From an uncultured Spirochaetota bacterium (GTDB taxonomy: Bacteria > Spirochaetota > Spirochaetia > SZUA-6 > Fen-1364), in NCBI GenBank assembly GCA_963781885.1, contig CAWAHW010000002.1, forward strand, positions 256,001-320,000: a stretch of DNA of 64,000 nt, given 5' to 3'. Below the pieces are notes generated by a model, which had not been told where the DNA came from, did not search any database, and saw nothing but the letters and a program-made list of their open reading frames with translations. The translations under genes were made by a program, and so were the position numbers. Position 1 is the stretch's first letter; the number at the start of each line of letters is the position of its first letter. Below, in pieces: positions 39,359-41,322 of the stretch.

Positions 39359-39954
39359 GGCGTCAGTTCGTCCCGGGTCTTGATGACGCGCGCGAGCAGG
39401 CCGTAGGCAACCGCCTCCTCCGCGTTCATCCAGTAGTCGCGGTCCGTGTCCTTTTCCACTTTCTCCAGGGGCTGTCCCGTCTCATCCGCAATCAGCCGGT
39501 TGATCTTCGCCCGCAGCTTCTCGATCTCTTTCGCGTGGATCTCGATCTCCGTGGCAACGCCCCGGGTTCCGCTCATGGGCTGGTGGATGAGGTAGTGCGA
39601 GTTGGGAAGGCCGATGCGCCTCTCCCGGGGGGCGGCAAGGATGATGATTGCCGCCGCGCTCGCGACGAGACCCATGCCGATCATCGTGATCTTCGGCTTC
39701 ACGAAGCGCATCATGTCGAAGATGGCGTATCCCGCGTCCGCGTCGCCGCCGGGAGAGTCGATGTACACCCTGATGGGATCCGCCGACTCCTCCTCCAGAA
39801 GTATGAGCGAACGGATCACCCTTTCGGCGAGCGGCTTGTTGATCTCCCCCGACACGAGAACGGTCCGGGACTTGAGCATCCGGCTGAAGAGCATGCTGTC
39901 GTCAGGCCGCGGTCCACCGCCCTCTGGCTCATTAGGCTTGTCCTGCAGTTTCAT
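39355..39954 (-). CDS. clpP: ATP-dependent Clp protease proteolytic subunit
   Basis: YIDSPGG, GLVASAA (Ser), IHQP (His), DTDRDYWMNAEEAVAYGL. Confidence 0.95.
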   Translation of the reverse strand: MKLQDKPNEPEGGGPRPDDSMLFSRMLKSRTVLVSGEINKPLAERVIRSLILLEEESADPIRVYIDSPGGDADAGYAIFDMMRFVKPKITMIGMGLVASAAAIIILAAPRERRIGLPNSHYLIHQPMSGTRGVATEIEIHAKEIEKLRAKINRLIADETGQPLEKVEKDTDRDYWMNAEEAVAYGLLARVIKTRDELTP

Positions 39955-39964
39955 ACTGAGAACA

Positions 39965-39993
39965 ACAATAAGGAAAAACCCCGCGCATGACAA
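39965..39993 (-). promoter_or_regulatory. clpP promoter (near-leaderless)
   Basis: TTGTCA-N17-TATTGT, 10 nt before ATG, with no SD. Confidence 0.6.
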
Positions 39994-40016
39994 TCGCGCC
40001 GCCGCAGCCACTGCTG

Positions 40017-40105
40017 GTGGCATTCGCGGCCACTCCTTCCGCTCCTGGCGGAGTTTGGTGGCATTCGCGGCCACTCCTTCCGCTCCTGGCGGAGTTGGCG
40101 GCACT
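40017..40105. repeat. Two tandem 41-bp palindromic repeats, same core as the 6.8-kb cluster
   Basis: GTGGCATTCGCGGCCACTCCTTCCGCTCCTGGCGGAGTT at 40017 and 40058. Confidence 0.88.
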
Positions 40106-40117
40106 TGTTGCGAGGAC

Positions 40118-40148
40118 AAAAAAAGGCCGGGACATTTCTGTCCCGGCC
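40118..40148 (-). terminator. Strong intrinsic terminator
   Basis: GGCCGGGACA-GAAA-TGTCCCGGCC followed by T7 on the minus strand. Confidence 0.9.
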
Positions 40149-40210
40149 ACCCGTCAATCTTCCGTCCTCCAATTGACTGGAGGTTGTGGGGCGGAAGGCT
40201 CCCAGAAGCA
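40118..40210 (-). ncRNA. Candidate orphan small RNA (~95 nt)
   Basis: Bounded by a consensus promoter and a terminator; no self-contained ORF; nested stems with pseudoknot potential. Confidence 0.55.
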
Positions 40211-40216
40211 GAATCG

Positions 40217-40244
40217 ATTATACATGGTCGCCGGGGGTTGTCAA
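40217..40244 (-). promoter_or_regulatory. Consensus sigma70 promoter driving the candidate sRNA
   Basis: TTGACA-N16-TATAAT. Confidence 0.8.
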
Positions 40245-40328
40245 TTAAAAAGGCCCGATCGGAGGAAAAGCGGGGAAAAAAAACGCGGCAACAGGTGATC
40301 GCCCGTATAGTGCGGAGAGGCAGTTGCT

Positions 40329-40440
40329 TTGTGGGGCTAAAACCAACAGAATGGGCGGAGTCCCGTCGCTTCCGGCGATACGATCCCCACGGCGGCGGCA
40401 CCGGAAACCGACGAAAGTCGCATCGACGGGACAGGTTGGC
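40329..40440 (+). promoter_or_regulatory. Structured 5' leader of mtnP (candidate cis-regulatory RNA)
   Basis: Three-way junction closed by a 9-bp stem, GAAA tetraloop, possible pseudoknot; ends just before the AAGGAG RBS. Confidence 0.45.
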
Positions 40441-40458
40441 ACGGAAAGGAGTCAAGCG

Positions 40459-41322
40459 ATGACACGGCTTGCCGTGATCGGAGGAAGCGGGTTGTATGCG
40501 ATGGAAGGAATCCGCGTGCTTGAGGAGAGGGACATCCCGACCCCCTGGGGAATGCCCTCCGATCCCGTGACGGTCGCGGAGATCGGCGGAGAACGGGTCG
40601 CCTTTCTCCCGCGGCATGGCCGCGGACACCGCTATCTGCCTTCAGAGGTGCCTTCGCGGGCGAATATCTGGGCCCTCAAGTCGCTCGGCGTGGAGCAGAT
40701 TCTCTCCGTGAGCGCCGTGGGCTCGCTCTCGGAGGGCTATGCCCCGGGAGAGTTCGTGCTGTGCGACGACCTGATCGACAGGACCGTGAAGCGGCCCTCC
40801 ACGTACTTTGGCGACGGCATTGTCGGGCACGTGGGATTCGCCGAGCCCTTCTGCGGGGGCATGCGGGAAGCGCTCGGCCGCGTCCTCGTCTCCCAGGCGC
40901 ATCCCCACCACCAGACTGGCACCTATGTCTGCATGGAAGGCCCCGCCTTCTCCACGCGCGCGGAATCGGACCTCCACCGCTCATGGCGCGCGGCGCTCAT
41001 TGGCATGACCGCCTGTCCCGAAGCGAAGCTCGCCCGGGAGGCGGAGATCTGCTACGCCACGGTGGCAATGATCACCGACTACGACTGCTGGAAGCCCAGC
41101 GAGGAGAGTGTCAGCGTCGAGATGGTCATGGCCACGATGAAGGCCAACACTACGGCGCTGCGTCGGATGCTTCCCGGCATGGTGGACGCCCTCAAAGGAC
41201 GGGCGGACTGCTCCTGCCGCCACGCCGCGGCGCATGCCGTCATGACGGAACCAGCTCTCATTCCGTACGAAACCCGCCGCAGGCTCGCGCTCTTTTACAG
41301 CAAGTACTGGGACAGAGGATAG
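40459..41322 (+). CDS. mtnP: S-methyl-5'-thioadenosine phosphorylase
   Basis: IGGSGLY, FLPRHG, RANIWALK, EGPAFSTRAES, GMT and TDYDCW motifs. Confidence 0.93.
   Translation: MTRLAVIGGSGLYAMEGIRVLEERDIPTPWGMPSDPVTVAEIGGERVAFLPRHGRGHRYLPSEVPSRANIWALKSLGVEQILSVSAVGSLSEGYAPGEFVLCDDLIDRTVKRPSTYFGDGIVGHVGFAEPFCGGMREALGRVLVSQAHPHHQTGTYVCMEGPAFSTRAESDLHRSWRAALIGMTACPEAKLAREAEICYATVAMITDYDCWKPSEESVSVEMVMATMKANTTALRRMLPGMVDALKGRADCSCRHAAAHAVMTEPALIPYETRRRLALFYSKYWDRG

Follow-up and report, generated by a model that had tools for sequence, protein, structure and literature searches.

A predicted small-RNA family of uncultured spirochaetes, encoded upstream of clpP and matching no described RNA family

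The minus strand of the window (the whole 64,000-nucleotide stretch of DNA that we analysed, from an uncultured Spirochaetota bacterium) carries a short element that is very probably a real, stand-alone and functional RNA gene. Judged from related genomes, it belongs to a genuine new family of small RNAs in a narrow lineage of uncultured spirochaetes, a family that appears to match no described one. Its predicted boundaries, its helices, its non-coding nature and its independence from the neighbouring clpP gene follow from comparison with relatives. A base-pairing mechanism is much less certain than this identity. Taking identity and mechanism together, we tentatively propose a trans-acting base-pairing RNA, a proposal to which we give somewhat less than even weight.

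In our model, a strong sigma-70-type promoter, consisting of a T-tract, a perfect -35 box and a near-perfect -10 box, would start transcription at about position 40210. The single-copy gene would yield a structured non-coding RNA of ~93 nt, transcribed independently and ending at about 40118. The RNA would be made up of a 5' tail ending in UGGGAG, a hairpin in which a bulge lies between helices P1 and P2, a short linker, and a terminator with a GNRA loop. The promoter, the bulged hairpin and the terminator with its U7 had all been described in the initial annotation, and each is found on the minus strand where it had been placed. The parts of the gene are as follows.

40245..40252, minus strand: T-rich tract resembling an UP element, a role it may have; abuts the -35 box, with a T-run in 25/25 aligned loci
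40239..40244, minus strand: -35 hexamer TTGACA
40217..40222, minus strand: -10 hexamer TATAAT, after a 16-nt spacer
40205..40211, minus strand: predicted transcription start (~40210 +/-2, placed from the -10 box) and variable 5' tail
40199..40204, minus strand: unpaired 5' motif UGGGAG, invariant in 31/31 distinct rows of alignment A2
40159..40197, minus strand: bulged hairpin, from minimum-energy folds and covariation
40197-40192 with 40164-40159, minus strand: helix P1, CUUCCG/CGGAAG, 6 bp
40191-40184, minus strand: C-rich 8-nt bulge CCCCACAA on the 5' side, between P1 and P2
40183-40178 with 40171-40166, minus strand: helix P2, CCUCCA/UGGAGG, 6 bp
40177-40172, minus strand: apical loop GUCAAU, variable among relatives
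40165, minus strand: single A within the bulged hairpin
40149..40158, minus strand: purine-rich linker AUUGACGGGU, different in the three families that carry the RNA and shorter in family f5
40118..40148, minus strand: intrinsic terminator, a 10-bp stem with a GAAA loop (40148-40125) followed by U7 (40124-40118)

The signals at the two ends of the gene are strong. The promoter scores 12/12 in a consensus scan of 10 kb, and the other two promoter-like sites in this region reach 10/12 and 9/12. The terminator of the RNA tops the ranking of the 12 terminators in the same 10 kb. A regular-expression search for perfect TTGACA-N16-18-TATAAT promoters returns 10 in the 4.64-Mb genome, which has a G+C content of 63%. 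Exactly 1 of these lies within the 64-kb window, so that the fully consensus promoter is indeed unique there, as had been noticed by eye. The minimum-energy fold of 40212-40116 has -41.1 kcal/mol (z = -2.81; 1/200 shuffles as stable) and reproduces P1, the bulge, P2 and the terminator, just as initially drawn.

Related genomes keep the element. A DNA search covered 40 of them, with the RNA part defined as running from the -10 box to the U-run. This part was present in 19/20 genomes of the same genus, 3/4 other genomes of the same family and 2/2 genomes of family f8, at identities of 76-95%. Across 25 loci, mean column identity is 0.60 upstream of the -35 box, 0.99 in the -35 box, 0.58 in the spacer and 0.90 in the -10 box, which reads TATAAT, TATACT, TAGAAT or TAAAAT among relatives. 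It is 0.50 from the -10 box to UGGGAG, 0.91 from UGGGAG to the U-run and 0.39 downstream. This is the footprint left by an RNA gene that has a promoter of its own. If promoter and terminator had merely come to lie side by side by chance, with no functional RNA between them, the RNA body would not be expected to show 91% column identity against 39% downstream, nor to carry compensatory changes. We consider such a coincidence, or alternatively a gene for a small protein, to be extremely improbable.

The window offers two frames for a small protein, one of 23 codons that starts at an ATG within the -10 region and one of 73 codons that starts at a TTG. Neither frame is conserved, and a Shine-Dalgarno sequence is missing. 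The ATG within the promoter is lost in f8. Among relatives, the loop has gained or lost 1 or 2 nt, and 1 nt is inserted after UGGGAG. Such non-triplet indels rule out a conserved reading frame.

The RNA gene has a narrow distribution. Covariance model R1 finds it in 31/92 genomes of the order, at 65-124 bits and as a single copy in each. With the window's own genome left out, the RNA-bearing genomes are 22/24 in family f1, 4/5 in f8 and 4/4 in genus g26 of f5. There are none in f7 (0/24), f6 (0/21), f2 (0/5) and f4 (0/2). In f1, the RNA is missing from two genomes, 77% and 60% complete, both of which also lack mtnP, the gene on the other side of the RNA locus. Hence, the locus is probably unassembled in these two genomes.

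Beyond the order, R1 gave no match above 29 bits in a class sample of 151 genomes, and a second model, R2, gave none above 29 bits in a phylum sample of 151 genomes. The order search returned seven further weak matches of 21-29 bits. Five weak matches, four from the order and one from the class sample, were aligned, and in all five the similarity is confined to the terminator. The other three from the order are G015, G087 and G035 (21-23 bits), and the class and phylum samples had 7 and 4 other weak matches. An exact-pattern scan of a species-genome collection hit 26 contigs, all titled as MAGs of uncultured organisms with names beginning Spirochaet-. A looser core pattern hit 66 metagenome contigs, 64 of which are also matched by the covariance model, and they contributed zero new sequence types. 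On one metagenome contig (L154), close to the contig end, two model matches overlap on opposite strands (12-86 plus, 55-153 minus). An inverted join made during assembly is the probable cause.

Across families, the RNA core is 69-81% identical to the window's copy, while identity between the ClpP and MtnP proteins encoded next to it is only 62-72%. By comparison of genomes, the predicted RNA gene is confined to three families of one uncultured order of Spirochaetia.

Comparison of sequences supports the helices. P1 and P2 are 100% paired across 31 distinct sequences. In P1, double changes from C-G to U-A occurred at 2/6 pairs, one in part of f8 and the other in f5. In P2, a double change occurred at 1/6 pairs, with the U-G intermediate seen. 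The terminator stem shows compensatory changes at 6/10 pairs. The covariation check on related loci, one of the tests put forward with the initial annotation, therefore turned up compensatory changes in P1, P2 and the terminator alike. For the 31 distinct sequences, 0/500 shuffles reached the observed covariation and slid registers all fell far lower; the outcome was repeated on 61 distinct sequences. Since the alignment was fitted to the model and P1 and P2 together hold three covariation events, the two helices are supported, but not richly.

Sequence conservation goes further than pairing. No variation is seen in UGGGAG, in the bulge's GCCCC or in most of P1 and P2, and both UGGGAG and GCCCC are unpaired in the consensus fold. 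In a larger alignment (A3), UGGGAG is invariant in 37/39 distinct core sequences, the remaining 2 rows being partial. The sequence varies in the apical loop, in the linker and at the base that follows UGGGAG. Over three families the P1, P2 and bulge sequences are near-invariant, whereas the terminator stem varies freely. This contrast suggests that something other than pairing, for example a tertiary fold or a bound protein or ligand, also constrains the sequence, and it suits a simple seed-and-scaffold RNA less well.

To see how the RNA relates to the genes around it, the following features are needed.

39954-39355, minus strand: clpP (Pfam CLP_protease, E 2e-64), downstream of the RNA on the same strand and followed by purC
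39965..39993, minus strand: predicted clpP promoter TTGTCA-N17-TATTGT, ending 10 nt before the clpP ATG (39954), without a Shine-Dalgarno sequence between
40015..40096, minus strand: two tandem copies of a 41-nt repeat, between terminator and clpP promoter and outside the RNA
40459-41322, plus strand: PNP_UDP_1 phosphorylase gene (the mtnP of the initial annotation), divergent and followed by a gene for an HD-domain protein

The order divergent mtnP, RNA, clpP is kept in 25/25 loci, at three of which the clpP match is partial or in pieces. Six f8 and f5 loci added later likewise have the RNA in front of clpP, in the same orientation. In two loci (L011 and L015) the tblastn match to clpP is broken into two or three overlapping pieces, which suggests frameshifts or errors of MAG assembly.

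That clpP has a promoter of its own had already been proposed, and the comparison bears this out. In every RNA-bearing locus a promoter of the form TTGTCA/TTGCCA/GTGACA-N17-TATTGT/TATATT lies immediately 5' of clpP. Between its end and the ATG there are 6-11 nt in f1 and f5, without a Shine-Dalgarno sequence; in f8 it is followed by a leader that contains one. Four families that lack the RNA but have the divergent mtnP-clpP arrangement carry a similar promoter 6-8 nt before the ATG. As a side observation, the clpP mRNA appears to be leaderless or nearly so in f1, in f5 and in these four sister families. From the terminator to the start of clpP there are 47-269 nt, inserted repeats included, as measured in those f1 loci whose clpP match starts at residue 1. 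Because the clpP promoter is kept with or without the RNA, the RNA gene is not a clpP leader. The separate clpP promoter and the unconstrained spacing together indicate that the RNA is a separate unit placed within an old mtnP-clpP intergenic region. The stand-alone transcript of the initial annotation thus fits the predicted signals, namely a conserved promoter and terminator for the RNA and an independent promoter for clpP.

Three further observations concern this intergenic region. The 41-nt repeat can form a hairpin and belongs to a REP-like dispersed family, with copies elsewhere in the genome (for example, one on contig 4 with 98% identity over 89 nt) and in many relatives; the insertion is missing at the corresponding position in most relatives. 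The mtnP gene has a promoter at 40324-40352 on the plus strand, TTGCTT-N17-CAGAAT, which corresponds to TTGCnn-N17-CACAAT in relatives and is conserved throughout the order. Some 12 nt 5' of its -35 box, at 40294-40312 on the plus strand, lies a block GGTGATCGCCCGTATAGTG that is conserved across f1 with a consensus of roughly ATCGnnnGTATAG. It is not palindromic and makes a poor sigma-70 promoter; it may be an operator or a site for an alternative sigma factor.

The position of the RNA also raises the idea of an attenuator that acts in cis, similar to a riboswitch. On that view, a ligand or factor sensed by the bulged hairpin would determine the level of read-through at the terminator. The parts occur in the order known from terminator-type attenuators and riboswitches: a promoter, a conserved structured domain, an intrinsic terminator directly after it, and a gene on the same strand, which is clpP at every RNA locus examined. 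In 10/13 representatives, moreover, the minimum-energy fold of the nascent RNA (up to the 5' half of the terminator) replaces P1 by an alternative helix, formed by the 5' strand of P1 or the bulge with the linker or the 5' half of the terminator. However, in 11/13 representatives at least 18 of 100 tail shuffles equal or exceed the real alternative helix, and its register differs among the three families. A conserved antiterminator, as the attenuator of the initial annotation would need, is thus not found above the level of shuffles. P1, P2 and the terminator also coexist in the full-length fold. Unlike the genes behind attenuators and riboswitches, clpP has what appears to be a conserved promoter of its own, present with or without the RNA, and its spacing to the RNA is unconstrained and accepts repeat insertions. 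Read-through would cross this promoter into the clpP mRNA and give it a long leader without a Shine-Dalgarno sequence. All in all, we judge an attenuator to be very unlikely.

One further point in favour of an attenuator is the C-rich 8-nt bulge, which is reminiscent of ligand-binding domains, among them domain 1 of the NAD+-I riboswitch (nadA motif). As described in PMC7297122, this domain has an 8-nt bulge on the 5' strand, ACANCCCC, and a 7-bp P1a followed by an internal loop in which GYG pairs with the C4 run; the riboswitch has two tandem domains and lies upstream of nadA genes. Measured against that description, our element shares an 8-nt 5'-strand bulge built from a C4 run and ACA-type residues, and a C:G as the penultimate pair at the bulge end of P1. 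The blocks of the bulge are reversed, however (CCCCACAA here, ACANCCCC there). Our element also lacks the 7-bp P1a and the GYG internal loop and has instead a 6-bp P2 closed by a variable loop. It is a single domain, its neighbours are mtnP and clpP rather than nadA, and its host is not one of the Acidobacteria. Rfam gives no match to the NAD+-I riboswitch at the locus at E up to 10. Membership in this class was rejected, as bulge order, GYG loop, domain number and gene context all fail against the riboswitch as that paper describes it.

Other known families do not account for the element either. At gathering thresholds, Rfam 15 finds 3 tRNAs only in the whole window. For 39900-40500 with E up to 10, the best match has E 0.044 and covers the terminator hairpin only; the same holds for the loci of five relatives searched with E up to 0.1, where the terminator hairpin alone is matched. 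The Rfam check that the initial annotation had asked for therefore leaves the RNA as undescribed as it was then taken to be. SRP RNA was rejected as a candidate, the canonical small SRP RNA sitting elsewhere in the genome (63 bits). So was 6S RNA, whose model has no match in the genome and for which the element is too short. Full-text literature searches, with the supplementary tables of RNA catalogues outside their scope, found nothing relevant on such an RNA among the papers listed. Entries of RNA-motif catalogues are normally deposited in Rfam.

What, then, could the RNA do? We suppose that it acts in trans. Most likely, the exposed UGGGAG, the GCCCCA of the bulge, or both would pair with complementary stretches of mRNAs, which makes UGGGAG a candidate seed. 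Pairing would proceed without Hfq or ProQ: neither family was found in the genome, which is 92.5% complete. Several features of a trans-acting base-pairing sRNA appear to be in place, namely a promoter and terminator of its own, independence from the flanking genes, and conserved unpaired segments. A similar design is known from the RsaE/RoxS-type sRNAs of Bacillales, which are independent of Hfq and have exposed C-rich motifs. Like our RNA, these are ~90-115 nt long, with their own housekeeping-type promoter, a Rho-independent terminator and an unpaired C-run able to pair with G-rich ribosome-binding regions. Unlike our RNA, which has one C-run in an internal bulge, they have several in loops, and they come from a different phylum. 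Neither by sequence nor by covariance model does Rfam match the element to the RsaE/RoxS family.

Target searches covered the window's own genome and gave no standout. Three segments of the RNA were paired in silico with 11,881 candidate translation-start windows, and their duplex energies did not improve on those of four shuffles each. In a blastn-short search of this genome, the longest perfect complement is 14 nt, with E = 1.2. A search of it for 10-mer complements found one in a start window, and by a rough estimate the number expected by chance is several. Separately, a 9-10-nt complement to the bulge exists at 40328-40337 on the plus strand, within the spacer of the mtnP promoter. As a target it was judged a coincidence, being exclusive to this genome and located inside a promoter spacer.

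The lack of a standout target is one of the points that speak for a different role in trans. The RNA could be bound by a protein or by the ribosome, as a sequestering or housekeeping RNA whose near-invariant helices and bulge are recognised by the binding factor. CsrA, another RNA-binding protein or the 30S subunit could be the partner. P2, a CCUCC/GGAGG duplex, resembles the helix between Shine-Dalgarno and anti-Shine-Dalgarno sequences. In three families the sequence of P1, P2 and the bulge has hardly changed even though the terminator has changed at 6/10 pairs, the gene is single-copy, and CsrA is encoded in the same 92.5%-complete genome. The promoter is 1 of only 10 perfect ones, and its spacer (column identity 0.58) has no conserved operator, which suggests high constitutive expression. 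We place binding second to base pairing, as possible, though on the unlikely side.

For CsrA in particular, the evidence points the other way. CsrA sponges of the CsrB/RsmZ type expose many GGA motifs in hairpin loops. The window's copy of our RNA does contain several GGA motifs, on which the initial annotation based its suggestion of a sponge. In contrast to CsrB and RsmZ, these motifs are base-paired, lying within stems (the 3' strands of P1 and P2). The sole hairpin other than the terminator has a variable loop without GGA. Furthermore, the GGA in the 3' strand of P1 is lost in f5 and in part of f8 through a compensatory change. With its GGA motifs paired in stems and one of them lost through covariation, the RNA fits a CsrA sponge poorly.

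A pseudoknot had also been suggested, between the apical loop GUCAAU and AUUGAC at 40158-40153 on the minus strand, inside the linker, with a switch helix as its alternative. The complementarity is real in the window, but it is not kept in relatives. The 4-bp part of this helix is 88% paired and the 2-bp part 51%; f8 and f5 have lost the helix, and several f1 sequences disrupt it as well. It can thus be set aside as a conserved feature.

A different pseudoknot is suggested by the invariant segments themselves. UGGG of the 5' motif is complementary to CCCA of the bulge, and both are invariant except for an A to U change in three rows. The two could form an H-type pseudoknot across P1, in which case UGGGAG would provide the 5' strand rather than a seed. 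With P2 as an inserted hairpin, the molecule would be not a seed-and-scaffold regulator but an abundant, compact RNA whose binding partner is a metabolite, a protein or the 30S subunit, and it would represent a new class. We regard a compact binder of this kind as unlikely, and pairing with mRNAs in trans is the reading we prefer, with the reserve expressed at the outset.

To our knowledge, work on regulatory RNAs of spirochaetes has covered very little beyond the pathogens and has not reached this uncultured lineage of soil, peat and sediment. An RNA that is conserved above its neighbouring proteins and is driven by one of the top ten promoters of the genome is likely to be an abundant molecule that matters to the cell. 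Should it turn out to be a binder with a compact pseudoknot instead of an ordinary base-pairing RNA, a new RNA class would be founded, and P2 would mimic a Shine-Dalgarno/anti-Shine-Dalgarno helix beside a clpP gene whose mRNA is apparently leaderless or near-leaderless. The RNA is short enough to be synthesised and would lend itself to structure probing and to pull-downs of ligands or proteins. Entered into Rfam, it could serve as a marker of this lineage.
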